This document shows, piece by piece, positions 1 to 28,598 of a stretch of DNA of 64,000 nt (the first letter of the stretch is position 1; the number at the start of each line of letters is the position of its first letter). The notes below the pieces were generated by a model. The model had not been told where the DNA came from. It saw only the letters and a program-made list of their open reading frames with translations, and searched no databases. This stretch comes from Schmidtea polychroa (taxonomy: Eukaryota), in contig CM097886.1 in assembly GCA_044892525.1 (NCBI GenBank), forward strand, positions 184,934,312 to 184,998,311, given 5' to 3'. Position numbers and translations under genes: made by a program.

Positions 1-877
1 GAAATCTCAAATATAATTTCAATTAATTACTACATAATTATGATATAATGTGATATAAATTATAAATATTATATTATATCAAATGACAAAATCTATTTAT
101 TGTCACCATTCGACACTACAGAAATTCAATGAAAACATTATTCAACACACTCATTAGTAATTACATAATCACATGTGCATAATCCAGTAATCATTTTTTA
201 TTTTAATTAACTAATTAAAATTCCTAAAATTGCACAAGAATATTGCATTTTGTGTATTTATTTCAGGAAAATGATTTATGACGTTAAATTTGAAAGAAAT
301 AGAATTTTTTAATAGTTCTTAAACATTATCTACTACTCATTGTAATTCTGTCAGTAGTATTGATAAATTTCTTCAATTGTTCCGTTATAGTGGGTATTTA
401 ATATATATTGATAGAAAGTAACAAAAGCTATGTCATTGGCTATCGATATTGAACGGCCGCCATACAAATTGACCAATAATATCCCTGCATTTCTTTATGG
501 ATTGATAGTCATTTGTTACAAGTTTTTTGATATTGTTCAATTTTTTCAATTGTGCGATTTATTCCAAAATCAACGTTAAATTTGCTGAAGGTTTCCAAAG
601 TTATAAAATTATCGAAAATGTGTAATAAATTTATTCGATGTTTAAACAAAATCATAATTAATTATGTTTTCTTGATTATATATAAATAATAAATAGAAAT
701 TTTGCATTCTTAAAATTTGCAAATAGAAGGAAGAATTTGTTTTTTGTAAAAATATATCTTGACAATTGTATTTTATTTTTGATTAATTTATCAAAATTAT
801 TTTATTAATGTTAAATACATACTTAAATAAACACGGTAAAGATTTTATTAATAAAAATCGCCATTCGTACGTCTTTT

Positions 878-918
878 TCACTATATATTTCGATAGCATC
901 ACTATCATCATCAGGTTA
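878..918 (-). ncRNA. Minimal type I hammerhead ribozyme motif (left arm of hairpin, minus strand)
   Basis: Minus strand reads UAAC-CUGAUGA-U-GAUAG-UGAUG-CUAUC-GAAA-UAUAU-A-GUGA. Stem II is a perfect 5 bp and the core is intact. Confidence 0.7.
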
Positions 919-1012
919 CCTACATTCACGATGGATGAATAACTATACTATATTGATAATTTGTTTATATATTATCAATATAGTATATATATTCATCCGT
1001 CGTGAATGTATG

Positions 1013-1053
1013 TAACCTGATGATGATAGTGATGCTATTGAAATATATAGTGA
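1013..1053 (+). ncRNA. Minimal type I hammerhead ribozyme motif (right arm of hairpin)
   Basis: CUGAUGA at 1017-1023, extra U, stem II GAUAG/CUAUU with 5-nt loop, GAAA at 1040-1043, palindromic stem III AUAUAU, triplet AUA with H17=1049. Stem I is weak (UAAC/GUGA). Confidence 0.65.
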
Positions 1054-2609
1054 AAAAGATGTACGAATGGTGATTAATATTAAATACATTTTATTTAAAA
1101 TAGGAGTTTATATTGAGAAAAATAAAATTATTATTTAATTTTATTTTATGAATTTGTTATTAGAAAATTCATTTCGTGATGCCTAATTGATGATTTGAAC
1201 GCTTATCAATCATTTTTATAATCCAAGAAGACATTTTGAATTTTATGTAAAATAATAATTATTATTTGAAATATTTGAAAATGTTATTAAAAGGAAAAAT
1301 TATAAGAATTATAAATCAATCATAAAAATTAGTGGAATAATTATAATTGTTTTAATTGGCATTTTGTCACTAATTCTAATATAAACGACGTCCATTGCAT
1401 ATTTATTCAAACAAATTTAAAGTAAAATAAAAATATATAAAAATTTATTGATTATTGTAATTTCATTAGATTTCACTGAAATTGTTATTTTCTACAAAAT
1501 TTTAATATTTCAAATTTTACTGTTTTTATTCTATTAATTTTTTTTACATTTCTCTAAAATTTAGATTTACAGAAATTTTTGTTTGGTCAATCTGATGCTC
1601 ATTAAAAATGTTAATTGTTTTTTCTCATTTAATAGTGAAAAAATTATTAATATTTTTAAAAATGTAAGAAAATTCATTTGACTTGTTTTTATTATTTCTT
1701 ATTTGACTTTTATCAAACTATTGATGCTCCTTGAGATTATATAAATTTTCTCATTCATTTCCGTTTCGGAATGTAAAGAAAATTATTGCCGCGATAAAAG
1801 TTTAAAAAAAATTTGTTTTATCTTTTAGCTTTTGANNNNNNNNNNNNNNNNNNNNNNNNNNNNNNNNNNNNNNNNNNNNNNNNNNNNNNNNNNNNNNNNN
1901 NNNNNNNNNNNNNNNNNNNNNNNNNNNNNNNNNNNNNNNNNNNNNNNNNNNNNNNNNNNNNNNNNNNNNNNNNNNNNNNNNNNNNNNNNNNNNNNNNNNN
2001 NNNNNNNNNNNNNNNNNNNNNNNNNNNNNNNNNNNNNNNNNNNNATAATATGGGATATGAGCATAATAAACTTTTCATATTTTACGAAAAAAATGAAATA
2101 TCTGAATTTCCATCCATCCATAATTTATAAAATTTAATAATTCCTCCAAATATTGATTAGAGTTCAAAAAATTTGAAGAATGTTTTCATTTTTTAATTAA
2201 AAATTTCCATTTGATTGAAATAATAATTGAATTATATTGGTGAATGATGGAAATAAAAATGTCAGAAACAAACAGATGTTAACCGGATTCATTTTATAAT
2301 GTAAATAATTAAACTGGGAATTTTTTCAACAATTTTTTTTGTAAAATTTTCCTGAATAGAACTTTGAACCTTCACACATTTGGCAATATCATTTGGCTTC
2401 AAAAATCCTTTGAGAAACAATTCTGAAAAGTCTTTTTACCAATAAAATCTTTAGTCTTCTTTATCACTGATAATTTCCTAATATCATTCTCTGTATGTTT
2501 ATAATTATCAAAATTTTGTTCTCTATTTTACATGAAATTTAGGCACTGTATTTTAAACAAAAAAGAAAGCATAAAATGTAAAATATAAATTTAGATTTTT
2601 ATTGTTATT

Positions 2610-2720: not shown

Positions 2721-3987
2721 AACTTTGAAAAAAAATTTTAAATTTAAAGATCAAAAGTTGTATGAGTTTTGAAAATTATAATAATGTCTCGAGAGGGGTA
2801 TGTTCATATTGATAATGGCACCAAAAGGTAAATTTTATTACTGAACCATTAAAGTTTACATTGAAATTTACAGATAAAAGACAATTATTCTAAAATATAT
2901 TCAATTTATCGAATTGTTGCTCTAATGTTTCTCTAAATTTGTCCGCCTCTCTCTTTTTTATCAAAATATAAACTTTTGTATACATTATATACATTTTGTG
3001 TAGAAAGAAATATCCAAAAAATTTACAACAATTTTCTATGAATAAAATTCTTCCTCCAGCTGTCTCTGGCGGAGAAATTTTCAAAAATCAATTTTATCAA
3101 CAAAAAAGCTTTTAATTTTTACTAATAAATATTTCTAGAAAATCCTAATTGAGTTTAAATTAATCCAAAAAACTTTTAAAAATTAATTTTAGAATTTTTT
3201 TGGAAAACCNNNNNNNNNNNNNNNNNNNNNNNNNNNNNNNNNNNNNNNNNNNNNNNNNNNNNNNNNNNNNNNNNNNNNNNNNNNNNNNNNNNNNNNNNNN
3301 NNNNNNNNNNNNNNNNNNNNNNNNNNNNNNNNNNNNNNNNNNNNNNNNNNNNNNNNNNNNNNATGACGCATAATTTGTCTAATTTGATCAGCTAATTCTT
3401 CTAAAACTGTTATACTGTGTTACATATAAAAGTTACATATATTTTCTGCATATATATAGATTACAATTTATTAAAACTTAAATTTTACGGAGATTCTTTA
3501 TAATTTTTAAAGAAATTTGAACTAATTATTTTTTTAATTTCTGAAATTTGGATTTATCCCAACTAAAAAATGGTGACATGCTATTATTTACCCAATGTTT
3601 TCTTTCAAATTAGAGTATGTATCACAAATTTTGTTTATAGGAAATAATGTAAATTAAAACTCTCAATCAACCCCAACCGGACATTGACAGCAAGGACAAA
3701 CAATCTATTATGTCCGAAAGAATTATTTTCGTAATTGTAATAATTAGACTAATTTCTCCAACAATTAAATTGGCACTAGAAATTCCACCAATATATACAT
3801 ATAATTCATTAATTCTCCCTAACTGTTGTGATCTTTTCTATGCCATTTATGCACCCTTAGGGAAAACATCAAAATTCAAAGGGGAATAAACAATATTTCT
3901 CAGATTAAGCAGCATCTCTTTTTAAGAAAAGAAATTAGATTTTGTTATAAGCAAAACCTGTTATGTAATAATTATAATTATAAAAAT

Positions 3988-4130
3988 TCACTTGAAAAAG
4001 GCAGTGCCGAAAATTCGTGAATATCAAAAACATCGATATATTTACTGATTCATAGTCAAGCATTTTATTAAATATAATGTCAATGGAAAAGAAATCAGTG
4101 GTGAAATTTGAAAAAATGTTCTTATAATAA
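3988..4130 (+). repeat. Foldback family A arm
   Basis: CACTTGAAAAAGGCAGTGCCGAAAATTCGTGAATATCAAAAACATCGATATATTTACTGATTCATAGTCAAG... recurs at least six times in the window. Confidence 0.8.
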
Positions 4131-7824: not shown

Positions 7825-8389
7825 TCAACAAAATATGTTCTCGAATTTGACCATCTTTTGAAATCCCAACTCCAAATTCTTCGATGATTTTTCTAGCGAT
7901 GAAGTTATTAAAAGAAGTTTCGAAAGCATTAAAATCTCAATACCAACCAATGGAGTAACAATAGCCCGATGATAGATTCGACGTGTGGCAATTATTTTTT
8001 GACTTTCAGTATATTGACTTTTGGCTTGAGTTGATTTTAAGAAATTCATATTATCTGACCAATTATGAAAAGTCTTTAAATCCAAAACCCATTTTATCTA
8101 CTGCATAATCATAAGCTTGAGCCATTCTTTCTTTGAAACTAGGAGTTTTGTTATCTTTATCTTGTAGGTGAGACAAATAAAGTTTCCATAATTCGATGTG
8201 ATAAGTTCGCAGTACATATTCCTTTAATAGTTCAACATTTTCAATGGTTTCAACATATTGACTGATTAAGGGAAACTGGCGAATTTGTGCATCGCTAAAT
8301 AAAACATTCCACGCTTCCCATTGATTTGATTTAAAGTGTTCTTTAGCCATCAATAGTTCATCAGGATTGAAAACTTTACTTTCTTTCAT
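7825..8389 (-). pseudogene. CSTF3: Degenerate N-terminal fragment of CstF-77 (CSTF3/suf/Rna14)
   Basis: HIELWKLYLSHL...PSFKERMAQAYDYAVDKMG, NFLKS...ESQKIIATRRIYHRAIVTP and IARKIIEE match recalled CSTF3 HAT repeats. At least two frameshifts, internal deletions, no introns, truncated. Confidence 0.85.
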
Positions 8390-10682
8390 ATTCAAATCTC
8401 CTTCCAAAATATATGTTTTTAAACAAAAGTTCATATTTCCAAATCTGGAAAATTCCAACATTCGAAATAAATTTCAAGCAAAAAATCAATTTAACAAAAC
8501 ACAAATTTAATAACAAAGCACACAGAGGTGATATAAACGACAAAAACATAAATCACCATTCCCAGCGTCTGTGTGCCTGACACAATACCCACCACAATCG
8601 CACACAAACGCGAGGCCGAATTCATACAGCCAGTCAGAGGGAGAAGTCATTCCCCTCCTCTGAATGGTCGAATCAATAATAATAATAATAATAATAATGA
8701 TAATAAATAACAATAATAAAATTAATTGTAAATTACATTTATTGTGAAAAATTACATAGTAACAAAATGGTTAAAGAATATAAAAAATACCACAGAAATA
8801 TCGCAGAAATAAAAAATTTAAAAAAATATTTAATAATTATATAGTGAAAATGAAATAAGTAAATACTCTTCCCTAATTGTCTTATAATGATGGGTAATAA
8901 TATGTGAGAGGTAAATATGGACAATACCCAACATGGATGCCAAACAAATGATTCTAGCACTTGATCAAATTGAATGACAACTTGAACTCAAATGTCCGGT
9001 GGAAAAAAGTGAAATTAAATATATATTTTTTTTAAATTGAAATGAATCATTATAATTATTATAATTATTTTTATTATTATAATTATCTTTGGTACTATTA
9101 ATTTATAATAATAAATAAATAACAATAGCAATAACTTTTAACGATTAAATGATAATAGAAGTCTTTTACTGCGTTAAATAAATAAAATTAAATTAGCAAA
9201 AATATTATTTCTTGATTTTATTGAATATATTCTTCACAACAAAAAGGCTTATATTATCATTTAATTGTTTAACATTGAATTAATGCTGCTACTAAGAAAT
9301 CATCACATTATAATAACAATNNNNNNNNNNNNNNNNNNNNNNNNNNNNNNNNNNNNNNNNNNNNNNNNNNNNNNNNNNNNNNNNNNNNNNNNNNNNNNNN
9401 NNNNNNNNNNNNNNNNNNNNNNNNNNNNNNNNNNNNNNNNNNNNNNNNNNNNNNNNNNNNNNNNNNNNNNNNNNNNNNNNNNNNNNNNNNNNNNNNNNNN
9501 NNNNNNNNNNNNNNNNNNNNNNNNNNNNNNNNNNNNNNNNNNNNNNNNNNNNNNNNNNNNNNNNNNNNNNNNNNNNNNNNNNNNNNNNNNNNNNNNNNNN
9601 NNNNNNNNNNATGAAAAATGATTGAAAAAATCATTTCACTTGATGTCATGAAAAAGTCAGAATCGTGATAAATGTAAAAGGAAACTATTTTTTTTCATTT
9701 TGTAAATTATTCTGAGAATTTTATTTAAAGTTTTATATTAAATGCCAAACTGGACAGGAATTTGCCTTGGTAATTAATATAACAAATTTTACACAATTTA
9801 CCAATGTTTTTATTGACAATGTGCAGCGTATTTAAAAGTAGTCATCCTTTTGTCAAATTTTTACCAATTCACCATTTTTAATTTATTTTTGGGCAGATTG
9901 GTATTGGTGTTCTGTATTCAGTAGGGTTACGACCATTCTCTTTGCTTCGGCACCTAGGATTAGAGATCTGGTAACTCACTTTATTACGTTTGCATAATTT
10001 GAAACACAATGCTTATTTAAGGAATCCAAAATATCTGTTAGTTCCATTTGTAATTAAAATTTGAATGATTGTACCTTTATGATGTTGTCACCTAGCAGAA
10101 TGGAATAAAAGCCCATTAGGCTGAAATAAAGTCCCAATAAAAAAGTAGTGATAGAAAGAAAAGATCTGACAGTTGTTAATAATTTGTACGACACAATTAA
10201 AACAAAAAAGAGAGACCCTTCGTTCTTACAGGCTTTGATTCCTATTTATTAGGCATGATATAGTTTTCATAATGATACATTCATATGGGGATGTCACAGA
10301 AAGACTGAATGAATTCAAACGTTTCTTTATTAAGCAATTAAAATATCTGGTTTATTAATTTATATAATAATAATTTATTTATTAGGAAACATTATATAAT
10401 AATTAAATAAATATTATGACAAAACTCTTCAAAATAATAAAACATTTAGAACAACCTAGTNNNNNNNNNNNNNNNNNNNNNNNNNNNNNNNNNNNNNNNN
10501 NNNNNNNNNNNNNNNNNNNNNNNNNNNNNNNNNNNNNNNNNNNNNNNNNNNNNNNNNNNNNNNNNNNNNNNNNNNNNNNNNNNNNNNNNNNNNNNNNNNN
10601 NNNNNNNNNNNNNNNNNNNNNNNNNNNNNNNNNNNNNNNNNNNNNNNNNNNNNNNNNNNNNNNNNNNNNNNNNNNNNNNNNN

Positions 10683-10874
10683 AGTAGCATTTATTATTTA
10701 AAACAATAAAATGATAATTTAAGCCTTTTGCTGCGAATAATGTATTTAATGAAAAAGTTTCGACTATAAGATAATCCTTGTCAATCTCTGCTTACAATTG
10801 ACAGTTGACAAGGACTATTTTATATTCGAAAATCTTTTCATTAAATACATTATTTGCAGCAAAAGGCTTAAATT
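10683..10874. repeat. Foldback family B (palindromic MITE-like), flanked by gaps on both sides
   Basis: AATTTAAGCCTTTTGCTGC...CCTTGTCAA is mirrored by TTGACAAGG...GCAGCAAAAGGCTTAAATT. Other copies at 11861-11910, 26477-26652 and 48888-48975. Confidence 0.85.
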
Positions 10875-13800
10875 NNNNNNNNNNNNNNNNNNNNNNNNNN
10901 NNNNNNNNNNNNNNNNNNNNNNNNNNNNNNNNNNNNNNNNNNNNNNNNNNNNNNNNNNNNNNNNNNNNNNNNNNNNNNNNNNNNNNNNNNNNNNNNNNNN
11001 NNNNNNNNNNNNNNNNNNNNNNNNNNNNATAAAATTATAAATTCAAATCTAGATTGATCAAGTATTGAGTGTAGAAAATGAATAATAAATAAATAATAAT
11101 TTCTACGAGAATGGCACCAAATGTTATCGATTATGAATAAATTGAGGTCAAACAAAATAAATAGAAGAATTCTTAATGAAAACATTTTGGACATTTTATA
11201 AATGTTGAAAATAATTTTTCAGTCAACAACTAACAAAAATATAAAAAAAATTTATTTACTCGCTGCAGAAAATTGTTGAATTTAAATATTAAAATTAAAA
11301 GTTTCAATAAATCAGTAAATAATCAAAATTAGATTTCTCTCTTATTTGTTTTTTTTTGTTTTAATGACGTAAAGAAATAATAATACGTATATTAATCATA
11401 CTAAGACTTCATAATCCGATTGATAAGAATTCCAGTAATTAATCAAATGATGTGACTTATTTTATCTTATAAGAACCATTTTACGGATTCAAATGCGTTG
11501 GGCGTTTTGTGACTGATCCGCTGATCTATTATAGGGCTTATGAAATAGTGAGTGCAAACCTGTACAATGTTTTGCATTAATTACTTGACTGAATCTGGTC
11601 CATTATGGGTTTCAGCATTAAAAAGCTATCTATTAGAAATAGCTAATAGATAATATATTTATATAAAAGAAATACTTTATTTATCTCATATGTTCCTAAT
11701 TCATGGCNNNNNNNNNNNNNNNNNNNNNNNNNNNNNNNNNNNNNNNNNNNNNNNNNNNNNNNNNNNNNNNNNNNNNNNNNNNNNNNNNNNNNNNNNNNNN
11801 NNNNNNNNNNNNNNNNNNNNNNNNNNNNNNNNNNNNNNNNNNNNNNNNNNNNNNNNNNNNGCAGCATTTATTATTTAAAACAATAAAATGATAATTTAAG
11901 CCTTTTTCTGCATTTTTTGAAATTTAAAGAAAACAGAAAAAATAAAAAATTATTAATGCAGCAAAAGGNNNNNNNNNNNNNNNNNNNNNNNNNNNNNNNN
12001 NNNNNNNNNNNNNNNNNNNNNNNNNNNNNNNNNNNNNNNNNNNNNNNNNNNNNNNNNNNNNNNNNNNNNNNNNNNNNNNNNNNNNNNNNNNNNNNNNNNT
12101 TTTAACTTAAGCTACCAATGTACATTAGATAATTTAATTAATTTTACTTTACTTTTTTAACAAATTTGCTAATTACTTTTACAATATTAATTTTTACAAA
12201 GTAAATTGGATATCAATAAATAGATAATTAAATTTACAATATAAATTATATCAAATTCGTAAAATAGTGTCAGATTGAAAATTTACTATGCTGGTTTGAA
12301 ATAATTTACCACCAAGTTAACATTATGACCAACAAAATTTTAGATTTTTATTTATTATTATTATAGAATAAAATTTAGCATTAGAATCATCTTCGAAAAT
12401 GTAAATATTATCAAAACTTAAATTTTTATTTGAAATTTTCGAAATCACGCTGCCGAAACTTTACCACCACAGCGACATTTTCATTAATAACTTTTTAAAT
12501 AATAATTATTAGAAACTAATTTTAGCATTACTGGAAAGATAATAAAATTTAGATTATAAATCATCTTAGAACTTTTAAATATTATCAAAAGTAAAATTAT
12601 ACTTGGCAAATATTGCAATCCAATACCATGTGTTTTGTATCTAATTAATTAATTAATAAAATTAAACTTTTCAAATTTACAATTTCGCCAAAAAGGCANN
12701 NNNNNNNNNNNNNNNNNNNNNNNNNNNNNNNNNNNNNNNNNNNNNNNNNNNNNNNNNNNNNNNNNNNNNNNNNNNNNNNNNNNNNNNNNNNNNNNNNNNN
12801 NNNNNNNNNNNNNNNNNNNNNNNNNNNNNNNNNNNNNNNNNNNNNNNNNNNNNNNNNNNNNNNNNNNNNNNNNNNNNNNNCTTAAGATAAAATCTTTTTT
12901 GAGGAATTTTAAATATTAATTGAAATTATAAAATAATATGTAAAAATAATATTTTTAAATATGTTTCTAATAGAAAATTTTAAAACTAACATTTTTAGAA
13001 ACTATTTGAATTTAAAAATATCGATTTGTTTTAAGAACGAAAATATTTATTTAAATAATATTGATTGGTTGAACTTTGGATTAAATAAACTTTACAAAAA
13101 TTTAATTAGATTAGATAAACAATTTTATTGTAAGTTGCCTTCATAAATTGATATTAATATTATCCTAATTGTATTAATATTTAATTCAATAAAAAAGTTT
13201 ATTAATTACCTAATTAAAATTAAATTAATAAAAATTAATTAATATAATCTAGAATTTCCCAAAAATTTGTAATAAATATTTTCATAGAAAAGAGAAATTG
13301 GAATGAATAATAATATTCTTGTTTTCCATGTTTAAATGACATTCGAATGGCGCATAATTCTTTAATCTAATTACGAGGGAAATACTTTCTCTGTCTTGTG
13401 AGATAATTTATGTAAATTGTTTACTTGGATTTATTTTTTCCTCATTTGACATATTTTCTATAAATAATTTTATCGAAATTTCAAAATAAATAAACAAATT
13501 ATTATTTGTTGGCTTGGGAACTTTGTTGATGGGAAATTTTTTGGTATACTCATTAAAACATTCATTTAGCTTTTATTTTTAAATATGTCTAAATTAGGAT
13601 TTTAAAAATAAAACATACTAATAATTTTTTTTTAATTTATTTTAGAAAATTTATTAAAAAGATATTTTATTTTTATTTTATTTAAATAAATGTTAACTGA
13701 TTTGGTCGTATTTTAATTAATTTTATTTATTGATAATCAACTAAAATTCACTTGATGATTGGCTGATAGTTTATAATCGACCTCAATGACCCTGTTGAAT

Positions 13801-13981
13801 TATCGCTTGTATGCTCGATTATTATTATAATTTAGCTTTTACATATTATGATTTATTTTCAATTGAATGAAAACTAATTGAAAATGCTGAATTAAGTACA
13901 TTAAGAACTTGAAAATATGTTTAATAATATAAATTTTTAATAAAACAAAGAATGATTTTAAGATTCCTATTGTATTAAAAT

Positions 13982-15734
13982 CAGGCCGTACCGTCGGGGG
14001 GGCCCAGGAGGGCCCGGCCCCCCCAAATAAAAAAACAGACATGAATAAAAAATTACATTCAATATGTTTGATAAAAGAAAAATTGCTATCGTGCACACAT
14101 GCATTGAGTTGCACATGTAGAGGTTTATGTAGTGTGGACGGGGGTAGGATGTTCCATCTATCTGCCTCACTGGAAGAGACTGGCATGTGAAGTCGGTGGC
14201 ATGGGTAGGGTGCGTGCTGTCTGTCTTTCCTGCCTCACAGGCAGTAACAACGCATGGAGGCATGATTGAGTGTCAGAGCACGGAGTGGGTGCATTGTGGT
14301 CTTCATACGATGGTAGAGAGATAGGCCAATGAGAGCACATCACATGTCATTATACTCAACTCACTCCTATGGCAGAGTGACATGTTAATTGATCATATTT
14401 TGTAACATTATTTTCATCGTATTAGATTCTAATATTATTAGAATAATATTATTAGAATTATATTATTAAATCTTATATTTTTTTCACTCTATGTTTAGAA
14501 AATTTTTAAAAATGAAAATTTAAGTTTAAAAGTTAAGAGACTTCCTGATAGAAAAAAAACAGCCAACAATAGCTTGCAGGGTCAAGCAATGGACCTTTCT
14601 TCAGCATGTGATGTTATGGATGCCGTCATAGAGCGCATTCGCAGCCTACGCAATGAAGAGGAATTCCAAGTTCTTTTTGGGAAATTCGAAGGTCAAATGG
14701 ATATGGAGCAGACACCAAAAAGAAGAAGAACTCAGATGAACTCAAAATTAGACAACTTCATTGTGTTCGGATCTGTGGGACAGCCAGAACACCAGGCCTT
14801 GCCTATCAGATGCGCATATCGCCAGATGTATTACGAAGTCGTTGATAGGACTCTGCAGGAAATAACAAAAAGCTTCGGTGTCACCAACAGAAGCCTTTAT
14901 AAGTCTCTTGCATGTTTCAAGACTGATCACGCAAACTTTTTGAATATTGAGGATCTAAAGACTTTAGCGACACTGTGTGGCGTGGACCTAAGCGAAACCC
15001 AACATGAATTTGAAACTGCAAAGGTTTTCCTATTGAAGAGAGCCAGTACTGTGACAAACGTTCATCAGTTAGTGCAAGAACTGTACTCATACCGAGATGC
15101 TTTTCCATCTGTCTATCGTCTTGCAGCTTCTGCACTGACAATCGGTGCTTCAACTGCCACATGTGAGGCGACTTTCAGTACTTTATCTCGTGTCTTAACT
15201 CCCTTTCGTACGTCGATGAGCCATTCTCGTAAAGCCAACTTTGTATTGCTCTCATTTGAAAGTAACATCAGTAATAACATCAAATCTGATGAGTTTCTTC
15301 GGCGGTTTCATGAAATGAAAAATCGTCGACTGCAGCTATTTTGAGTCATGTCGATATCTCACACACGTAATTTCTTTTTTCTGGATCTAGTTCCTGTGTA
15401 ATTTCTATTGCACTCACCTTTAGTTTTCAAATCTGTGTGACTGTGTGTTCTGTCTTTGTATGTCCAAATACATGCAGCTATTTGTTTTTTGTGTTTGTTC
15501 CTAAAAAATGTGCGAAAATCATTTTCTATATACTAGTATATGCAATAATGTAGCAAAATAATGCTCAGACAAAATGTCGATTTTGCTTTCCTTTTTTTTA
15601 AATTGAACATTTCGGAGTGCAAAGTGTGAGTAGTGACTAGTCTGTTTTCATAAAATACTTAGTTTACACGAGAATTACTGGCCCCTCAAACGCAAGTCTG
15701 CCCCCCCGTCAAAAGGTGTCACGGTACGGGGCTG
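13982..15734 (+). mobile_element. Internally deleted hAT DNA transposon, 1753 bp
   Basis: Perfect 8-bp TSD ATTAAAAT (13974-13981, 15735-15742). Imperfect TIR CAGGCCGTACCGT / ACGGTACGGGGCTG. Carries a transposase 3' half. Confidence 0.92.
14574..15344 (+). pseudogene. C-terminal about 256 aa of a hAT (ZMYM1-like) transposase with hATC dimerization domain; 5' half missing
   Basis: FPSVYRLAASALTIGASTATCEATFSTLSRV..FRTSM and LQGQAMDLSSAC motifs. The frame is uninterrupted but starts at a non-ATG codon after an AT-rich block. Confidence 0.85.
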
Positions 15735-16315
15735 ATTAAAATTAATAAGAGATTAAAGAAAACCTATTCCACGTAACAATTTTAAAGTTTCAAAATGGTT
15801 CAATAAAACAAAGCAATAAAAAAACAGTGTGTTTTAAAATTTTACATCGTATTGTGCCATTTCCAAATTCAATCTGCTACAGATACACACTATTTGATGC
15901 ATACACACATACCGGCTAGTTGCATGCACAAACTCATTAGTTGCATACACACACTCATTAGTTTCATCCGATCATAACCACGGGGAAAATGTTAAATACA
16001 TCCTGTTTTATTTACACTTATTTAAATTACAAACTAGCACACACTTTTGAGAATATTGCGCATTTTTTGTATTTTCTATCAAACCACAAACATTTCACTC
16101 GAGTGTGACATATAATTTGTCTGATTGAACCAACATTTACTATTGAAAATATAAACAATTCATTAAATAAATATTTACATGATTTTTGTTGAATGTAAAG
16201 CAAGCATATTTATTACATTTTTGTTGTGTTTATTGTTTTATTTTTCCTACCTTTAATTATAAATTCAATTTTACATATTAATATTGGATATAAATAACAA
16301 CAAAAAGTCACCACT

Positions 16316-17680
16316 TTAGGCGCACACCCAGGATCTTTACTTGTGGGGCTTAATTTTAGAAAACACATTTTTAAGGGTCGAGTTCATTTTGAATAGGAAG
16401 GGGGTTAAATTCATTTACTACAAAGGGTGCAGCTTATTTTACTCAGTCAACGACACTGCTTATCAAATCTTATTATCCTGAAGACTTAGTAAGCTCTTTT
16501 GTAGTTAATCGTTTCCAGTTAATAATTTAAATATTTTATTGTCATTGTGGGGGGAGGGGTGGACTCAAGTTCACAATCTCTCCTTGGGTGCTCATCTGGA
16601 GCCTATTCATTTGTAAATGTTTGTTTTCCATAACATAAGTTTAATAATTTAATACAAAAGATTATTTTCTATTAGTAAATATTAAATTTTTAATTATAAA
16701 AATAATTAGCTAATGTGAGAAATTTCATTAAATTTCTAGAAAATCGTGAAATCAGTGCAGAAATTGAAGATTTTACAAAATAAACCAAAAAACAAAATTT
16801 TAGAAGTGTAAATGAGAATGCCATTTGATCTCCATTTTTTAACATCTAAAAGACATCTTTATGTCGAAATTTTGAACCCGCCACATTTTTTATTATCTAT
16901 CAATTGTGTTAATAAATATGAATTTATAAATAATTGAGTGAAGGTCTTCTAGTGAAGGTCTCTAATGAAGGTCTCTAGTGAAGGTCTTCTTGTTAAGGTC
17001 TTCTAACTAAGGTCTTTTTGTAAAGGTCTTCATATGAAGGTCTTCTTGTGAAGGTCTTCTAGTGAAGGTATTTAGTGAAGGTCTTCAAATGAAGGTATTT
17101 TAATGAAGGTTTTCTATTAAAGGTCTTATGAACCTTAATTTGTAGGAGAAATGAATATTATTGAAACAGAATTGAGTTTTCTCGCACTGGGAATATCATC
17201 AGAACTGCCTTTCATAAATTTCCCAAAATTACTTAGTGCCAGGAAAAAATTGGGGTAGGTCACCATTTTGATATGAAAAATGATTAGTTATATCAAAGCT
17301 TTGATAAAGGACACCCAGCAACATCCATAAGGTAAACATTATCACAATTCAATTAATCATCCTCATCTATAAAAGATTTATTATTGTAGAGCTCCACTTT
17401 AGAAAAAAGATTTTTAAGGTTCGAGTTCATTTTCAATACATAATACACGAGAAAAACAAAATATTAACTACTTTTATATTCATTTTGAATAGGAGGGGTT
17501 TAAATGAATTTATTTTTACACAGTCAACGCTACTGCTTATCAAATCTTATTATCCTGAGGACTTAGTAAGCTCTTTTGTAATTAATCATTAATTTAGATT
17601 TTTTATAGTCATGAGGGGGGCTTAAATCCACGAGCTCCCTTTCGGTGCGCATCTGGACCCCATTCATTTGTAAATCTTTG
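16316..17680 (+). repeat. Two diverged direct copies of a 290-300 bp segment (about 16316-16620 and 17393-17680), possibly old MITEs
   Basis: Both contain CAGTCAACG..ACTGCTTATCAAATCTTATTATCCTGA.GACTTAGTAAGCTCTTTT and end in GGTGC.CATCTGGA.C..ATTCATTTGTAAAT. No TSD found. Confidence 0.7.
16938..17128. repeat. 13-14 bp minisatellite (AGTGAAGGTCTTCT), about 14 units
   Basis: Tandem AAGGTCT core visible directly. Confidence 0.9.
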
Positions 17681-18920
17681 TGCTAAGTTCACTAATCCCT
17701 TGTAGATTTATATATTTTTATTATATAGTTTGGAATAAATTATATGAAAAGTAGCACTATTCTCACATTCGCCATCTTTTATTGAATTTTCACTTATTTT
17801 TCAAGGATTTTTGCAATATATTAACACTGATATAATTTTTAGCTTGCCGATCCAGTAGTTTTTACATTCTATATAAATGAAATAATATTAAATTTAAATG
17901 NNNNNNNNNNNNNNNNNNNNNNNNNNNNNNNNNNNNNNNNNNNNNNNNNNNNNNNNNNNNNNNNNNNNNNNNNNNNNNNNNNNNNNNNNNNNNNNNNNNN
18001 NNNNNNNNNNNNNNNNNNNNNNNNNNNNNNNNNNNNNNNNNNNNNNNNNNNNNNNNNNNNNNNNNNNNNNNNNNNNNNNNNNNNNNNNNNNNNNNNNNNN
18101 NNNNNNNNNNNNNNNNNNNNNNNNNNNNNNNNNNNNNNNNNNNNNNNNNNNNNNNNNNNNNNNNNNNNNNNNNNNNNNNNNNNNNNNNNNNNNNNNNNNN
18201 NNNNNNNNNNNNNNNNNNNNNNNNNNNNNNNNNTAATGACATACCAGGTCAACAGTTTGATTCAATATTATCCAAATCTTTATGAATAAACATAAACAGC
18301 AGCCCCACCCGAATGAAATTTGTTTCAAAAAATAATTCAAAAATTAAAAGCAATTATGAATTAAACTTAATCTTATTGGTTGAATTAATCTAACCAATCA
18401 CGTTGCATTTCTATTTGATTTTGAAAAGTTTTTGTCGAATGTTTTAATTATAATTGAAATAAACAAAATAAATATTTACAATTGCATAGACAGACTGACA
18501 GGAGATTTGGACAAAATTTGCCCATCTCTATTTATTAAATTTTTCAATTTCATTGTCTTACATTTCTATTATTTGTTTTAATGTTTAATAAAGTTTACAT
18601 TTACATTGATTGATAAAGCATTCCTGGAGAAGTAAGGACGTCCATTCCAGATAATTCTGTTTCAAGAGGAGGGGAGGGGGGCGGGGGTGGGAGAAAATTT
18701 ACATTTTTAAACTATAATAAAATCTTTTCGTATTATTTCTATTATTTTTGCCATCAACCTTAATTACCTTAAAGAGCCTTGTGACATTGGAGTTTTATCT
18801 TTTAATAGTTTTCATTTCATTATTATTCCAAAAGAAGTAATTATATAATCTATTCAAGGATAATTTGGATTTTTCAAAAATATTCGATTTTATATTTTAT
18901 CTTTTTTACCATTATTTTAC

Positions 18921-19250
18921 CATGACCCTGTGATCATGTGACCCTGTCATTATCTCACCTTGTGATCATATGGCATTGTGATTACTTGACCTTGTGATCA
19001 TATGGCATTGTGATTACCTGACCTTGTGATCATGTGACCCTGTGATCATGTGACCCTGTGATCATATGACCTGTGATTATCTCACCTTGTGATCATATGG
19101 CATTGTGATTACCTGACCTTGTGATCATGTGACCCTGTGATTATCTCACCTTGTGATCATATGGCATTGTGACTACTTGACCTTGTGATCATGTGACCCT
19201 GTGATTACCTGACCTTGTGATCGTATAACCTTGTGATTATCTGACCTCTT
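18921..19250. repeat. 16-17 bp minisatellite (CTGTGATCATGTGACC and variants), about 19 units
   Basis: Tandem TGTGATCA/TGTGATTA units with higher-order re-duplication. Confidence 0.9.
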
Positions 19251-20924
19251 AATTATATATTAAATGATTAAAGGCCATGGAACCCTACCATTAATTGGTG
19301 TTAATAAAACTTTCTTGTGCATTGGACAACGTAAGTTTAAAATGAAATATAACTGTAAATTATTGTTAAAGAAAGCTAGTTCTCAAAGACCCCGATAAAG
19401 TCGTAAAAATAAATTGATTTTTATTACTCACAAATTACTGCTAATAAACAAAAATATTTATTGACAATGATTCAATTTATTCCGGATTTGATTTCTTATT
19501 TATTTGTTTTCGTTGTTTAAATACACTAAAAAGATTATTGCTAATTTGCGATAGAAAAAAACGAAATATGAAAAATACACCAGTAAAACAAATAAAATAA
19601 CAATTTAATCGATTTTGTTGCAATTTTAAACAAATCAAAAGTTGTTTTAATCGATCAAAATTGTAAATTTATTGATAAAATATCTTTCAATTAAATTTTC
19701 AAATAACATTTATGTAAATCAAATTGTTGCTTATATGACTGATTAATGTGNNNNNNNNNNNNNNNNNNNNNNNNNNNNNNNNNNNNNNNNNNNNNNNNNN
19801 NNNNNNNNNNNNNNNNNNNNNNNNNNNNNNNNNNNNNNNNNNNNNNNNNNNNNNNNNNNNNNNNNNNNNNNNNNNNNNNNNNNNNNNNNNNNNNNNNNNN
19901 NNNNNNNNNNNNNNNNNNNNNNNNNNNNNNNNNNNNNNNNNNNNNNNNNNNNNNNNNNNNNNNNNNNNNNNNNNNNNNNNNNNNNNNNNNNNNNNNNNNN
20001 NNNNNNNNNNNNNNNNNNNNNNNNNNNNNNNNNNNNNNNNNNNNNNNNNNNNNNNNNNNNNNNNNNNNNNNNNNNNNNNNNNNNNNNNNNNNNNNNNNNN
20101 TTATTAAAATTCTTGACTAAAAATCAGTAAAGATAATAAAAAGGCAATCGATATATTTACTGATTCATCATATTCAAGTTAATTAATAAATACAATGTCA
20201 ATTGAAAATAAATCAGTGGTGAAAATTGAAAAAAGTTCTTCTAATAATATTAATAATAATAATAACAATAATAAATAATAATTTTATTTTATTCGAAATT
20301 ATCTTTTCTCAATCTTATCTGAAAATCGACTTTCCTAAATTTTATAATGCATAATATATCCAATTTCACTAAAATTTTTTTTTTAATATTAAACTTATTT
20401 AAAAACAATTTATATTAATTTTACCAAAAAGGAAAATTGAAGAATTTACAAAATTTGTGGGACAAGAGTCGAATTGGGCCAGACTGGAAATTATTGACAT
20501 GAAAGAAACAAACGTCATTTGAGATAAACAAAATAACTAATTCTACAAATTTGAGAAACGATGTTATTAGCTACAACTATTTTCAAATATTATAAATAAT
20601 ACATTTGTTAATTACAAAATGTATATCAAATAACCATTTGGTACATATTGGTCCACATTTCTACATTCAAATTATAGATATTGGAAGGACATTTACAACA
20701 TTTGACCAAGAACTTAAAACAGGTAAATGCATTTTTCTTTGTTCTTTACGTTTTTGTTTGTTGTGATCTTTTGAAAAAGGGTTTAACTAAATATTAGTTT
20801 TTAAATATTAAAACCAGTACCGTATCAAAACACCATATATGGTGCATCGGTCAGTGTTTATGAAGAAGGGCTCTAATTGGTTCTATATGAAATTCGACTA
20901 CCGGACAATATAGATTGATTAAAA

Positions 20925-21660
20925 ATAGAGCTTGAAGACCATAAATCAGTAATATATCGATGTTTTTTGATACTCACAAATTTTCGGTACTGCTTGTTTT
21001 AAGTGAATTTCTAGTAAATTCACTTGAAAAAGGCAGTGACGAAAATTCGTGAGTATCAACAAACATCGATATATTCAGTGCTCGAAGTGGAACAAAATAT
21101 GTGCCGGGATAGGCATGCTGTGGCACCCGGGATTCCAGGCTTTTATGCAGAAATTCTCAGTTGGGGGTGTTGCAAAACTTTTGGGGGTGTCCAACAAATT
21201 TTGGGGGGGGGGGTGTCCACCCATTTAATCATAAGTTTCAGAATATACCTACCTATCCATTACTGCTGCTTGGGAAATTCTTAATTGAATAGAGAATAGA
21301 GAATAAAGAACTTTAAATTGGTACCGAAAATTGTAATTAAATTTCATTGAAGAAACGTATCAAGTAATAATAAAAATACTTAAATATACATATATGGATG
21401 TACTATGTGTGACCTTAATTGCAGTATTTGTGTGCCTATAAAATGAAATAAGTACCGGGATAAACCTATAGATTATATGAAATGAAGTGCCGGGATGCAA
21501 TTCCACCTACATAATCAATGCCGGGATAATATCCCGGCTATCCCGCCTCACTTCGAGCACTGGATATATTACTGATTTATAGTCTTCAAGCTCTCTTTTT
21601 AATAAATTCAATGGAAAAAATAATTAGTGGTGAAATTGGAAAAAAGTTCTTATAGTATAG
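20925..21660. repeat. Foldback family A palindromic copy interrupted by a hAT MITE
   Basis: Left arm about 20925-21008 and right arm 21015-21075 plus 21563-21660, centred on AAGTGAATTTCTAGTAAATTCACTT. Confidence 0.75.
21076..21562. mobile_element. hAT-type MITE, 487 bp
   Basis: 14-bp TIR CAGTGCTCGAAGTG / CACTTCGAGCACTG and 8-bp TSD GATATATT (21068-21075, 21563-21570). Internal T[G/A]CCGGGAT subterminal repeats. Confidence 0.93.
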
Positions 21661-22485
21661 ATTGAGCAATTACGCAATAATTAATATTGGATGTTACATT
21701 AAAAAATATTATTAATAAATAATCGCTTATGTCTAAATCTATTGACCAGTCGAACAAGGTCAAGATATTCTATATATAAAAAGAGTCACAAAACACACGC
21801 AAAAAGTAATTTTGATAAAATCGCTCAATTTCCTCCGCCCTAGACTTCAAAAAACTCCAACGAAAAAGTCCATTAGCGTTAAATTTCAATTTTATAATTT
21901 TACTTAACAATTTATTGTATGCTTTGCCTTTTACTCATTAACATCACTAATTGTTCAGTTGTATATTTGTTATTAAACCAGTAAATACAAACGCTTTATA
22001 TTGTGTCAAATTCATGTAAAGTACGCAAAATGATTATTAATAAGTCGAAAACTTCGGTCTCGTTTATCAATTTACATGTTCTAGCTTGAGAACATATTGA
22101 CCAATATTAGTAACCACAATAAGGGCTGTAAGAGTAAAATAGGTATGTTTGATTTTAAAATTTTATTAAAAAATTTCGACAATTATTAGGAACGTGTAAT
22201 TTGTTATAAAATTAATGTGCAGAATGCAGTGAATACTTGTGTTTTAAATGTTTTAAAATAATTTATTGTATATTAAATGTATGGATTGTTGTTGTTAAAT
22301 TAAATAATTATTAAATTATTAAATTAAATTTCAATATTTTAAAATTTTATATTTGATAACTAAAATTTAAAAAAATAATATATTATTTGAATTATAAAAA
22401 AATATTTTTTTATTAAAAATTTGATATAATTAATACCATTAATAAATTAGTTCAAAAATATATAATTTCTATAATTATTATATCC

Positions 22486-22524
22486 TACCTGATGATGACA
22501 GGAAAACTATCGAAATATATCGTA
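22486..22524 (+). ncRNA. Minimal type I hammerhead ribozyme motif (third, diverged copy)
   Basis: UAC-CUGAUGA(22489-22495)-U-GACAG-GAAAA-CUAUC-GAAA(22512-22515)-UAUAU-C(22521)-GUA. 3-bp stem I, AUC cleavage triplet, one mismatch in stem II. Downstream about 25 nt is homologous to the hairpin copies. Confidence 0.7.
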
Positions 22525-23877
22525 AAACAAATGTTTGATTGGCGCTGCCTTATAATTAAATCGTTGACATGTATGTTTAACTATTTATTTAAAAATGATA
22601 TTAAAATAATTTTTAAAAATAAAAAATGAGACTGATATAAATGTAATTAATAAATCATTTATAACAATTAATAAATTATATAAATTTAAAATCCTTTGTC
22701 AAAGTATAATATAACAACGTCACACCCCCCTCCTCTACGAATAATAATAAAACAAAATAAACATTTGCTGTTGAATTTGATAAAACAAATTGATATGAAT
22801 TTTTGAACCAATTTTTAATCGCATTCAAAATTTTAATGAATTTATAATAGAAATTAATTGATTTCATTTTTGTTTAATCGGTAATCACATTTAAACAAAT
22901 GATGACAATTTTCCTACATCTTACAGCCTCAAAGTATGCGGCCCGTTGCTCGTGGAATTGTATAAAAACAAATGATAATTAATCACCAGTTGTCATTTTA
23001 AATACAAATTACATTTATTTTTTAAAGAAAACAATTAAGCAATTAATTAAATACATAATGAAATTTTTATTATATTTCCTTCAATTCGTTTTGTCTGGTG
23101 GGTGAATTATGCTTTTCAAATGCATTAAACTCATCACTTAAATATTACAACAAAAAAAACAATTATAATTATAATAATTAATTCTCTATCTATTTTTTAA
23201 ACAAAATGAATGAAATATTTTAGCGATTTAAACAATAATATTTATTTATTTTGATAATACAGTGGATCGTTAATAATCATCAGCGATTTGAGCTATTTTT
23301 AGATTAAATTCCAATTATTAAAACAAAAAACAAATTTAATTAAAAAAAATTTAAAGAAATTAATGCCAATTTTTTGTTGAAATCAAATTATTAACCAATG
23401 AAATTTGTAGCTTTATTTTTAATTAAATGGAAAATTATAATATAAATAATTTTATTATGGGATAATTTGATCATCCCAAGTTACAATAAGATCCATTTTA
23501 TATACTCACATTTCCCTTTGCTTTAGGTTCATTTTTCTAGATGAAGCTTTATTTTATTTTTTATGTGACTTATTCCCTTGGTACGGAAACCAGTTATACA
23601 TTGACCAGTATTTCATCAGCATATCTATATAAAATTTCTAATAAAAAAATATTTAAAAAGTATATTATAAGCTTTACCGCAAGTATTTATAACATTTTTA
23701 CAAAACGCCAATCATGCATGACGGGCATAATGCAAACCGACAATAAATACACCCGTTTGCGAGAGTTAACATTGTCTATAATACACCTAATTCCAGATGT
23801 TAAAAGTCTCTATAATACATGTTAGTGTGTTCATCAGTTGATGGCTCACCATTTATGAGAATGTGAAGTTATTTACT

Positions 23878-25640
23878 TCATTTCATTTATTCAATTTTAC
23901 AAGTAAGTTTTTTTAATTTAAGTAACTTTTAAGGTTTGAATTTTGATTTTATAAAATTATGAGATCACTATTCAAGCTTTTAAATGTTACTTGTAGTCAA
24001 CATTTTGATTATAAATTATTTTTAATTAATTTCAGGATTTTTTTAACTATGAATTTATTTGGAATTATTTCAATAAAATGTAAGTTAGATTAATATTTTT
24101 AACTATGAATAAATAAAGAAATCACCAAAAACATTTATTTTTTAAGACATTTAAGAAAGAAGCGGAGTAGTATTTTAAGTTTTTGTAATGTTCTTTATCC
24201 AGCTCATTTATATGACGAATTTTGTCATTTTATGTAATTCTATGAAATTATTATTTTTTTATACAAGTTATAAAAATTTACGATTTTCGAATTTTTTTCC
24301 AGAAAAATATCTAAAAATCTAAAGAAATAATAACTTCAAAAATATTTTATAAATAGATTTTACGATGTTTTGTCGTCCTTTTATCGAAAACTTAAAGTAG
24401 AGTTGTCCGATTGAAAATCCAAAATTTTTTCTGCCATGAATTTTAATATATTAAAAATAATGATATGTTAACAATATGTTAATGACTTTCTACTTTCGGA
24501 ATAAAAAAAGCTATATTAAATTTACGTGTATTTTATATTATGTGTGCTGTGTTTGTATGTAAAATTATTTTTCTGTCACTTTCTCAATTCCTATAATAAA
24601 ACTTTTAACATTCGGAACATTAAATTTTTGCACACAGGTAAGTTTGTGTGTTGCTATAGTATAATTTTATCGATTTTTTTAGATTATAGAAACTTTTATA
24701 TTCTGAATTTAGGTGTATACGTATGTGTACACACCAGTTGTGGTGAGTCACCAATTATATGACAATGTTAACTTAATTTCATTTATTCAATTTTTCAAAA
24801 ATCGTTTTAAGGTAAGTTTTTGAATTAAAGTAATTTTTAGGACTTGAATTTTGATTTTATATAATTATGAGATCATTATTCAAGTTCTTAAATATTACTG
24901 TTAGTCATCATTTATAATATAATATATTAATAATTAAATTTCAGGTGATTTTAGAAATTTTATGATATTTTATTTGGATTTATTTGGATTTATTTCGTAA
25001 AAATGTAAGTTAGATATTTTTAAAATTATAAATAAATAAAGTATTCACCAAACATTTATTTTTCAGACATTTAGGAAAGAATGGATAAAATAATTTTTTA
25101 AGTTTTTGTAATCTTCTTTCGAATTTTTTCTTTTTTTGTAATTCAATGAAAATATTAATTTGTTAAAATAATTTATTAAAATTTACGATTTGCGATTTTT
25201 TTCCTGCAAATTCAAAGATGTCGAAGGATCTTCTTCAATATCTGTAAATCTAAAGAAATTTTATATTCAAAATTATTTTATAATTAAATCTTACGATGTA
25301 TTTTCTTCTTTTTCTCTAAAGCTCAAGGTAGAGCAGTCGGAATCTGATTCAAAAGTTTTATTGTGCATAACTTTTTAAATGATTTGAAAATATTAATATG
25401 TTAATCAATGTTAATTTGGCAAAAAAACACTTTATTAATTTTGTATGTATTTTTCATTATGTGTGCTGTGTTTGTATGCTTAATTATTTTCTCTCACTTT
25501 TAAGATTCCTATAATAAATATGTTGACTTTCGCAGCATTAAATTTTTACACACAGGTAAGTTTGTCTGTTCCTATAATATATATTTATTGATTTTTTTAT
25601 ATTATAGGCTATATTATATTTCGCAAACGGGTGTATCATG
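23878..25640. repeat. Diverged tandem duplication, unit about 900 bp (about 23878-24777 and 24778-25640)
   Basis: Co-linear shared blocks, e.g. TTTGATTTTATA.AATTATGAGATCA, ATTATGTGTGCTGTGTTTGTATG, CACACAGGTAAGTTTGT. Confidence 0.8.
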
Positions 25641-26401
25641 CAAATCACTATGACAACTCACTAATTGCACAATTGTCGTATCCTTGATGATAATCAAATT
25701 GACCTAGTTTTCATCATTTGTTTAAAATTCAAATCAATAATAAATGAAATATCATCAAAAAAAAAGAAACATTTCAAAGGTGACCAAAAAAATAAAAGAT
25801 TTTACTGATAAAAAATTTCATTTATTTTGTAAAAAAGATTCAAATTTCATGTAATATTTGTACACAAATTAAACTGAAATATTTTGGTTACAAATGGGAC
25901 TTTATTAGGGAACCCTCCAGTATCATATGTAAAATATTCCATTAATTTTATTTTTCTCTTGAATAATGACTAGCTTTTTGCCAATTTTATGAAGGTTTGT
26001 GGTTTATAAGGGTCCATGTGACACCATGATAAGAGAATCACATTCATAAATTTTTACTAAAAATTTCTATTTAAATGATATTTTGTTTGAATCCATTCTC
26101 AATTACAGAAAGAATATTTCAAACCCAAAGAGACTCCTTAAAAATATCAAATATTACTTACAAGATTTTTCTTCGGAGATTCATTAATTTAGGAACTTCC
26201 TTTTGTTGTCTTGCAAAATTAATTAATAAATTATTAAAATTTGGTTTTTACTGTGTCATGTTCCTAAAGAGACGTAAAAAATGTAATTATAAGATACAAG
26301 AGGCCTAATTATAGAAAATTTGAGAAAGAAAATTAAAATAAAATTAATTACAAAAAAATTTTAATTAACATCTTTATCTTAATATAATAATTATAGTATT
26401 A

Positions 26402-26442
<41 letters not shown>

Positions 26443-27430
26443 ATTATTATTAGAATAAAGTGATGATTTCTTGGTAGCAGCATTTATTATTTAAAACAAT
26501 AAAATGATAATTTAAGCCTTTTGCTGCAAATAATGTATTTAATGAAAATATTTTCGGCTATAAGATAATCCTTGTCAATCTATCTATCAAGAACTATCTT
26601 ATAGTCGAAAATTTTTTCATTAAATACATTATAAGCAGCAAAAGGCTTAAATNNNNNNNNNNNNNNNNNNNNNNNNNNNNNNNNNNNNNNNNNNNNNNNN
26701 NNNNNNNNNNNNNNNNNNNNNNNNNNNNNNNNNNNNNNNNNNNNNNNNNNNNNNNNNNNNNNNNNNNNNNNNNNNNNNNNNNNNNNNNNNNNNNNNNNNN
26801 NNNNNNNNNNNAAGATTCGATAGTGCCGACTAAATTTGATATAAACAAATTAAAGTTTAAACTCATTTCTTGACAACTTTTATGTTTTCTTTTTCATTTA
26901 ATCGTTTTTAGTATCGAAATTTTCTTTAATTTAGCAAATCTTGAAAATCTTTTCATTTGGTTCCAGAAGTTCTTGATTGAGAAGTCTATTCCGGTGAAAG
27001 GGGGGATACGTTATATATTTCAGGACATAAAAAACAAACAAGATGATTTCTGCAACTCCTCCAGTTGTCAATGAGAGTACTTGAAATAAACCAAAATTTA
27101 TGAGTTTCATTTCACTGGAAATAATTTCTGGAATGAAAATTCGTATTTTGTTTTAAATTTAAAAAAATACATTTGAAAATTCTACTTTCGAAAAAATAAA
27201 AATTTTCTATTTTATTTTTAGTTAAAGTATGTTTTTTCACATTACTTATTTATCGGTTGTAAGTAGTTGTTTTTGTCATTTTCCATAATGATTAAGATGG
27301 GAAAAAATATAATATTTATATTAATAATCCATCAGTGCAAAGAATTCCTCTGAAAGAGTTCTTCCATGGCTCGCAAGCTTATGACATTTCTTTAATATCT
27401 CTTTATGTATTATCGAAACACTTGATAAAA

Positions 27431-28515
27431 CTGTATTACTATGTTCAAGTCTGGACTTCGTGACGGCCATGTAATCGTTGATATATTACTTGATTTCAGA
27501 TAATTTTGGACAATCCGTGCTTTGTGTACTGTGCAATTGTCTTGCTGGAAGTAAAAATTTCCTCTTTAGGTTAACTTTCATTATTGGCACAGCAAAGGTC
27601 TTCAACAGGGTAATGTAATCGGTCGACTTAAATTTGCCAGTTATCATGTGGAAAGATAGAAGTCCGTTAGGAAGGATCATCAGCCAGACCATAATTCACC
27701 CTCCATGACATTGCCGAATATTACGCACATATTTTGATGTTTTCGGAATATATGTCATCCAACAATCTGGTCCATCAAGTGTGAACCTTTTTTCGTCTGA
27801 GAATATAGTATTCTCCCAAATGTGATTGGTCGAAATCCATTCTGTTATCACTTTCATTCTTTCTTCCTTGTGTTTCTTAGATAGGATGATTTCGTGATAA
27901 CTTTTTGCGTATTTCATACCAGCAAGCTGCATATACCTTTGTACTGTCCTTGTTGATACAGCTAGCCCACAATTTCTCTTGATCTTGGGCGAATTAACTT
28001 TATCCGTGCAGTTTCTCTTTTGATGGATAACGCGTCTGCTTTACTTATTTTTCTTCTGTTTCCACGTTTGCGTTTATGTAACACATATTTGTAGGTGACT
28101 AAATTCTTAACAGCATATCTAGACATGCCCAAAATGGTGCCAATTGCACCATAACTGTTACCTTCCTGTTTCATCTTTATAGCAACTTTCTTTAAATCTG
28201 GAGATCTCATAATCAATTCTAAAATTATTATAAACATTAAAATCATATAAAGTAGTATAAAAAAATAGGTTAAAATTATTAATACTTAAAAATCTTTAAA
28301 GTGTGCTAAAAATTGTGTCGTATTTTAATTTTTAAAAAACCTAAGAATTCAAATATTATTTAAACAAAAAATAATATATGTCTAAGTAGTGATAATTATT
28401 AAAAGTATTACTATATTAATTACAATCATACAAAATTTATTTCATTTATTACATTATTAATGATTTTGTAACGAAATTTCTTACTGTGCTAAAAATAGTG
28501 TCGGGCAGTATATAT
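27431..28515 (-). mobile_element. Tc1/Tc3-like (DD34E-type) transposon, frameshifted and 3'-truncated
   Basis: HTH N-terminus (27962-28246), FSDEKRFTLDGPD, QQDNCTVH and WPSRSPDLN motifs in shifting frames; it ends where the third catalytic residue should be. One TIR end at about 28510 with inner and outer direct repeats TGTGCTAAAAAT.GTGTCG (28302, 28485). Confidence 0.88.
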
Positions 28516-28595
28516 AATTCTTTACGGATATCAACAAAGAATTTCATCATGATTTTATAGGTAGTCTCGTGAATACCAACAGTTTTCATTCCTAA
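28514..28595 (-). pseudogene. Actin pseudogene remnant (copy A), split by the Tc1 element; continues about 27340-27430
   Basis: Near-identical to 32133-32215 of the actin pseudogene; joins exactly across the Tc1 insertion. Confidence 0.75.
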
Positions 28596-28598
28596 TAG

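Follow-up and report, generated by a model that had tools for sequence, protein, structure and literature searches.

A hammerhead-bearing hairpin in Schmidtea polychroa as a probable inverted Penelope-like insertion

Introduction

What is a long hairpin whose two arms each carry a hammerhead ribozyme core, one on each strand? The question is raised by a locus near the left end of a 64,000-nt stretch of DNA from Schmidtea polychroa, the whole of which was analysed and is called the window here. This eukaryotic DNA is rich in AT, is interrupted by assembly gaps, and carries host genes along with hAT and Tc1 remnants. A first reading made from the letters only (the sequence-only reading) had placed the hairpin at 856-1075, and had taken it for either an inverted pLTR remnant of a Penelope-like element (PLE) or a non-autonomous ribozyme-bearing element.

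Several published accounts bear on this question, and they are cited from the portions of each paper that were available. Minimal hammerheads were described in PLE pLTRs, with low activity even as dimers, as were dual motifs on opposite strands 100-700 bp apart and a Drosophila type with a 2-bp helix I in Drosophila virilis (PMC4209133). In rotifers, inverted pLTRs are mostly head-to-head, with a 31-bp tail and 8-10-bp duplications; the first 12-22 codons lie inside the pLTR and tail, antisense small RNAs were found, and self-priming was proposed for the inverted copies (PMC3846280). An inverted 5'-truncated copy with a 30-40-bp tail at one end was also reported (PMC8557442). In Poseidon of Anolis carolinensis (PAc), the ORF starts at stem II and the cut lies 26 bp downstream (PMC11167929). 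Both strands were cut and extended in vitro in that system, ATT was preferred, and the tail lies between two RT start sites. Its ribozyme was protein-assisted and dispensable for insertion in vitro, and inverted copies are not treated in the available text of that paper.

Results

The palindrome with 105-bp arms was confirmed. Positions 856-960 pair with 971-1075 over 105 nt, with mismatches at the 7 sites where the arms differ. The hairpin fold was predicted at -160.2 kcal/mol (z -30.7), and equal stability was reached in 0 of 200 shuffles. However, 856-1075 proved too small a unit. The actual unit is a 252-bp insert at 821-1072, which lies between 17-bp direct repeats. The left copy of this target-site duplication (804-820, + strand) begins with ATT and matches the right copy (1073-1089, + strand) directly at 16 of 17 positions. 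A repeat of this length was reached by 3 of 1500 null pairs drawn from AT-rich genomic DNA and by 0 of 1000 shuffles. The duplication sits in AT-rich DNA, and the position of its left inner edge is uncertain by up to 10 nt, as some copies of the family match as far as 811.

The two arms are not equivalent. According to the arm pairing and the family ends, the left arm (821-960, - strand) is a 5'-truncated pLTR copy with a tail. This tail is a 3' extension of 35-38 bp at 821-858 (- strand), delimited by the family 3' ends and present in the left arm only. The right arm (956-1072, + strand) is a 5'-truncated pLTR copy without the tail. It stops at 1072-1075, where the ATT of the arm and the target ATT that opens the duplication (1073-1075) are the same three bases. 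The inversion junction (956-970, + strand) consists of a 5-nt microhomology common to both arms (956-960), followed by 10 nt of right-arm sequence that form the loop. These 10 nt are element sequence owned by the right arm, a correction to the sequence-only reading. Within 290 bp one can read the tail, the target duplication, the microhomology of the junction and the alleles of the arms.

No empty site for the 821-1072 insert was seen in the contigs of the examined runs. A joint from 809 to 1124, present in two runs, was considered as an empty site and rejected, since its position differs from the predicted one and its sides measure 19-21 nt.

One hammerhead core per strand had been claimed, and both a motif pattern and a descriptor recovered them, from 914 to 882 on the - strand and from 1017 to 1049 on the + strand. 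The left-arm motif (882-914) is an intact minimal hammerhead, with CUGAUGA, an extra U, a 5-bp helix II with a G-C closing pair, GAAA, a palindromic AUAUAU helix III and A17. The right-arm motif (1017-1049) is decayed: a C-to-T change at 1039 has removed the G10.1-C11.1 pair, and helix II closes with G-U. Both arms have a helix I of 2 bp (C-G and A-U, followed by an A/G mismatch). The motif, intact in the left arm, fits the minimal-hammerhead consensus in Fig. S3 of PMC4209133, which comprises CUGANGA, an extra base, a G10.1-C11.1 helix II, GAAA, a palindromic helix III and U16.1-H17. The cut predicted earlier, after 1049, corresponds to the one register in which any helix I can form; it lies 27 nt from the ATG at 1023. 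The pattern was found at 3 places in the window and in 0 of 100 shuffles, and the descriptor gave 0 matches in 100 block shuffles. The Rfam search suggested by the sequence-only reading returned no hammerhead in three scans with hits up to E 5-10.

The set of copies in that reading was incomplete, for a third, solo copy is present at 22487-22582 (+ strand), with the motif itself placed at 22489-22520 by the pattern search. It is diverged (73%) and has the same core, a replaced loop II, C17, a 3-bp helix I, one mismatch in helix II and the same open frame. A clear target duplication was sought around it and not found. The retention of the stem while the loop was replaced is suggestive; the presumed coding constraint would overlap the stem, and no compensatory change was observed in the stems of the three copies. 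A further core-like match at 15286, inside a hAT frame, was dropped as it has no palindromic helix III. That frame (14499-15344, + strand) encodes a hAT dimerisation domain, and Tc1-type transposase remnants occur at 27699-28285 (- strand).

The activity of the ribozyme was assessed by fold models, which contain neither tertiary contacts nor protein help. A through-transcript had been expected to bury the ribozyme, and the models agree: a read-through RNA would hold a single sense motif inside 98-102 bp, with 102 of 105 positions paired on the + strand and 98 of 105 on the - strand. Lying on opposite strands, the two cores cannot form a dimer in cis. For single arms, the ribozyme-ready fold was predicted to cost 6.7-9.2 kcal/mol, the helix III self-duplex was predicted at only -0.8 kcal/mol, and helix I had a pair probability of 0.0 in the predicted ensembles. 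Self-cleavage of a half-transcript looks unfavourable in these models, and the ribozyme is probably inactive at 821-1072.

The mismatches between the arms were then considered by strand. As had been noted, four of the seven are G-U on the + strand (860/1071, 871/1060, 892/1039 and 932/999). These are all four of the transition mismatches, and given the G-U pairs an unbroken duplex of 64 bp is left on that strand. Such a duplex could belong to a domesticated hairpin-RNA or microRNA-like locus giving small RNAs against the repeat family. The left junction was found in two studies, between which the flank sequence differs at 7 of 345 nt, and is also in line with that explanation. However, the G-U bias is weak (two-sided p=0.125 for 4/4). 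Three of the four G-U changes are C-to-T at CpG, which affects 3 of 10 CpG sites vs 4 of 95 other sites (p=0.018, with the direction at 1071 assumed). Rfam microRNA scores were 17-46 bits vs thresholds of 62-80. A domesticated locus is therefore highly unlikely; an insert of PLE origin could at the same time give small RNAs incidentally. At 871 the reads show a gain of CG. The observed/expected CpG ratio of the window is 0.87, and therefore methylation is not claimed.

Contigs from 4 of 23 sequencing runs were aligned to positions 500-1500. In run X1, the summed contig depth was about 2.36 million over the ribozyme vs 316 in the flank (ratio about 7,500), and in X3 the ratio was 10,800-28,500 depending on the flank value; summed contig depth is not copy number, and these figures are read only as a very abundant repeat. 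The arm is thus a very abundant genomic repeat. The X1 depth fell from 911,103 in bin 1044-1077 to 10,827 in bin 1078-1111. On the other side, the 3' ends of the family are ragged, at 811, 819 and 823 in X1 and X3, and the sequence beyond them is unrelated. Loose ends before 956 and behind 962 share a consensus (agreement 0.79-0.88), from which it follows that the family extends upstream there in non-inverted form. Two pattern scans of metagenome contigs for the motif gave 0 matches.

In run X8, which is labelled with another organism, the repeat was found at 823-960 in a few contigs, with summed depth up to 18,900 and 1-3 differences (15 records). A related species, a mixed sample or transfer are candidate causes. 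Run X12, which may be RNA, gave 103 contigs; they could not be assigned to this locus and do not count here as evidence on expression.

The same contigs bear on whether the palindrome is an assembly or amplification chimera. The scaffold is gappy and none of the contigs listed covers the entire insert, as a chimera would allow. Against this, the arms differ at 7/105 sites, and a single-copy contig runs from the left flank into the element, differing at no position in X1 and at 7 in X3. Moreover, a target duplication would not arise from a chimera, and this origin is scarcely credible.

An ATG lies at A9-U-G10.1 of the ribozyme and probably starts a PLE ORF, of which the first 29 codons would be present at 821-908 (- strand). 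Of the three frames, only the one set by this ATG stays open both in the left arm and in the third copy (22495-22581). The 27 changes between these two copies fall 5/6/16 by codon position, a third-position bias with p=0.005. Downstream of the cut site alone, the changes are 5/3/13 (p=0.007). When the same changes were permuted, an equally good protein match was obtained in 0.06% of 5000 trials (p=0.0006). These tests compare two copies, with the frame chosen among three, but the ATG frame is the one predicted by the Poseidon precedent.

It had been observed that no RT or GIY-YIG ORF is visible in the window, and this held in a Pfam scan, where 0 of 140 frames (of the 205 with at least 55 codons) matched. 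The insert is truncated by construction and so has no ORF body in which RT or GIY-YIG could appear. The N-terminal peptide gave 497 candidates, none at E<=1, and no usable match in Atlas. One match at E 8.6e-5 among 1.84 billion proteins was a repetitive 179-aa singleton and was judged to be due to chance. The putative link to a PLE protein comes from architecture, and a parent ORF, which would show membership of an autonomous PLE family, was not seen among the 140 of 205 frames scanned.

These results also bear on a fold-back DNA transposon (MITE) in which the hammerhead-like string arose by chance. Long inverted arms, a direct repeat, an AT-rich site and high copy number are what a MITE would show, and hAT and Tc1 remnants do occur in the window. 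However, terminal inverted repeats that match and are sharp on both sides, as in a MITE, were not found: the ends are unequal, the family 3' ends are ragged at 811/819/823 and there is a solo copy. The absence of the motif from shuffles, the codon bias and the 17-bp duplication also argue against a MITE, and this explanation, very improbable on these grounds, is largely refuted.

Other hammerheads were detected in the window by a descriptor for a U3-A8 core, which found 3 motifs vs 1 in 60 shuffles. A second family with this core and a 6-bp helix I is present at 3992 and 32377 and, decayed, at 20951-21075. The motifs at 3992-4016 and 32377-32401 are well-formed U3-A8 minimal hammerheads with the 6-bp helix I and only a 3-bp helix II. 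They are predicted to be better candidates for cleavage tests than the motif at 821-1072. The second-family palindrome (20907-21665) is arranged head to head, between a 12-bp direct repeat with 11/12 identity (20907-20918 and 21654-21665). One of its arms bears a tail of about 45 bp, and a microhomology starting with ATT lies on the tail-less arm. Its right arm is split at 21076-21562 by a later, hAT-like insert, which has an 8-bp duplication and whose terminal inverted repeats are short. Another pair, 2620-2710 vs 3984-4130, is head to head with 1.3 kb between; a duplication was sought for it and not found. A third family, also with a U3-A8 core, occurs at 10683-10874, 26476-26652 and 48888-48978. 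Its palindromes at 10716-10874 and 26510-26652 have different centres, and their right ends adjoin assembly gaps. The four palindromes of three families each have their own junction, which points to repeated formation at insertion and not to a mobile palindrome.

The last observation bears on the second proposal of the sequence-only reading. A non-autonomous, ORF-less PLE derivative would be a short family moved in trans, with the palindrome perhaps as the mobile unit. The thousands-fold depth fits it, as do the lack of RT in 140/205 frames and of a homologue of the N-terminal peptide, and such PLE derivatives are described in the available part of PMC8557442. On the other hand, family contigs pass the junction into shared non-inverted sequence, and the different centres of the palindromes in other families suggest that a palindrome forms anew with each insertion. 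The proposal is left unsupported where the palindrome itself is taken as the unit, since family copies continue upstream and other centres differ. A derivative of this kind is improbable here, and the parent element may be short and non-palindromic.

Further features of the window were recorded. A diverged Suf/CstF-77 fragment in two frames is present at 7828-8473 (- strand); a word search for its homologues gave none at E<=1e-5, and the hairpin could be intronic if this gene runs leftwards. A 926-bp inverted repeat (32868-33793 / 35223-36148, 99%) and local direct duplications (26812-29293 / 31447-33603, 98-99%) may reflect recent duplication or assembly redundancy. A 159-bp tandem array occupies 43101-44700. 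A coatomer beta-prime gene lies at 57000-64000, with introns filled with short tandem repeats and exons whose GC content exceeds that of the window's first half.

Discussion

The hairpin is very probably a single, now inert PLE insertion, in which two 5'-truncated ribozyme-bearing ends are joined head to head. The earlier proposal of an inverted pLTR remnant is supported by the target-site duplication, the one-sided tail, the high copy number, the ATG inside the ribozyme with its coding signal, and the recurrence of the layout in a second family. Every structural feature of 821-1072 is already on record in the literature.

Such an insertion could have formed as follows. The GIY-YIG endonuclease of the element would make a staggered cut, offset by 17 nt, in AT-rich DNA. 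Reverse transcription would start at two internal start sites, the far site giving the arm with the tail and the near site the arm without it. Both copies would stop about 50-60 nt upstream of the ribozyme and would be joined via the 5 nt of microhomology. In the parent element, to which the hammerhead would belong, it may overlap the beginning of the RT-EN frame and work as a ribozyme that is dimeric or assisted by protein. At 821-1072 it is likely idle, and the hairpin would be a by-product.

Priming from both cut strands is mildly favoured over a single cDNA folding back, because the tail-less arm owns the loop and copying that arm back cannot supply the tail. In a fold-back, the strand that owns the loop would be the template and has no tail; its supposed copy has one, so that an extra trimming step would be required, whereas double priming requires none.

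The arm alleles hint at two RNA templates. A two-base allele of the right arm (988-989) is held by about 15% (X1) and 11% (X3) of the family depth, and the left arm carries the majority allele. It is conceivable, if rather doubtful, that the palindromes arise from two separate RNAs: a dimeric RT-endonuclease would prime both cut strands, one per internal start site, and the cDNAs would be joined by microhomology. However, the 988-989 allele extends a TA run and could recur, and gene conversion among thousands of copies could give the same alleles. The depth shares also derive from contigs assigned to the better-fitting arm, and they concern one locus. No paper proposing a two-template origin of PLE palindromes was found in a search that left older subscription Penelope papers outside.

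As a locus, 821-1072 matters little, being one decayed insertion of an abundant repeat with a published layout; it is a clean specimen of a PLE inverted insertion. For the making of inverted PLE copies, self-priming was proposed (PMC3846280) and two-strand, two-site priming was shown in vitro (PMC11167929); a palindrome census would bear directly on the choice. Inserts of this kind seem to be numerous in the genome and to come from at least three hammerhead families. If the two-template proposal were true, palindrome-rich genomes would settle self-priming vs double priming by counting. For annotation tools, PLE palindromic inserts mimic MITEs or microRNA hairpins.

In L1 twin priming, both cut strands prime, the cDNAs are joined by microhomology and a target duplication results; the inverted part is a different, upstream piece. 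The insert at 821-1072 resembles it in the microhomology join, the target duplication and, as far as can be inferred, the use of two cut-strand primers. Unlike in L1, both arms copy the same end, which results in a palindrome.

Retrozymes are defined by short tandem repeats, each with a classical hammerhead. Such tandem ribozyme repeats were not found in the window, where the copies are inverted or solo. The present repeat shares with metazoan retrozymes (PMC7229834, available portion) a type I hammerhead in a dispersed, non-coding-looking repeat. It differs from them in the lack of a tandem array, in a minimal instead of a classical motif, and in its coding signal and PLE tail.

In layout, a close likeness is with the inverted-pLTR insertions of EN+ PLEs from the Penelope/Poseidon group, described in the available parts of PMC3846280 and PMC8557442. 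These share the head-to-head inverted 5'-truncated copy, the one-sided tail (35-38 bp here vs 30-40 bp), the target duplication, the AT-rich site and the first ORF codons in pLTR and tail. In contrast to them, no ORF body is left in the 252 bp, and the 17-bp duplication is longer than the 8-10-bp duplications of the rotifer paper (PMC3846280).

With respect to the ribozyme, the Drosophila Penelope type (PMC4209133, available portion) has the same core, the extra base between 9 and 10.1, G10.1-C11.1, the palindromic AUAUAU helix III, the 2-bp helix I and pairs on opposite strands, which are 103 bp apart here. The helix II sequence differs, and helix I is weaker in the present motif.

Regarding Poseidon PAc, as described in the available text of PMC11167929, the start sites differ: here they would be at 50 and 88 nt within the ORF, whereas PAc has one at 111-118. 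In both systems the ORF starts at stem II, with the cut 27 nt away here vs 26, an ATT is found at the target, and the tail lies between two RT start sites, which for the present element are putative.
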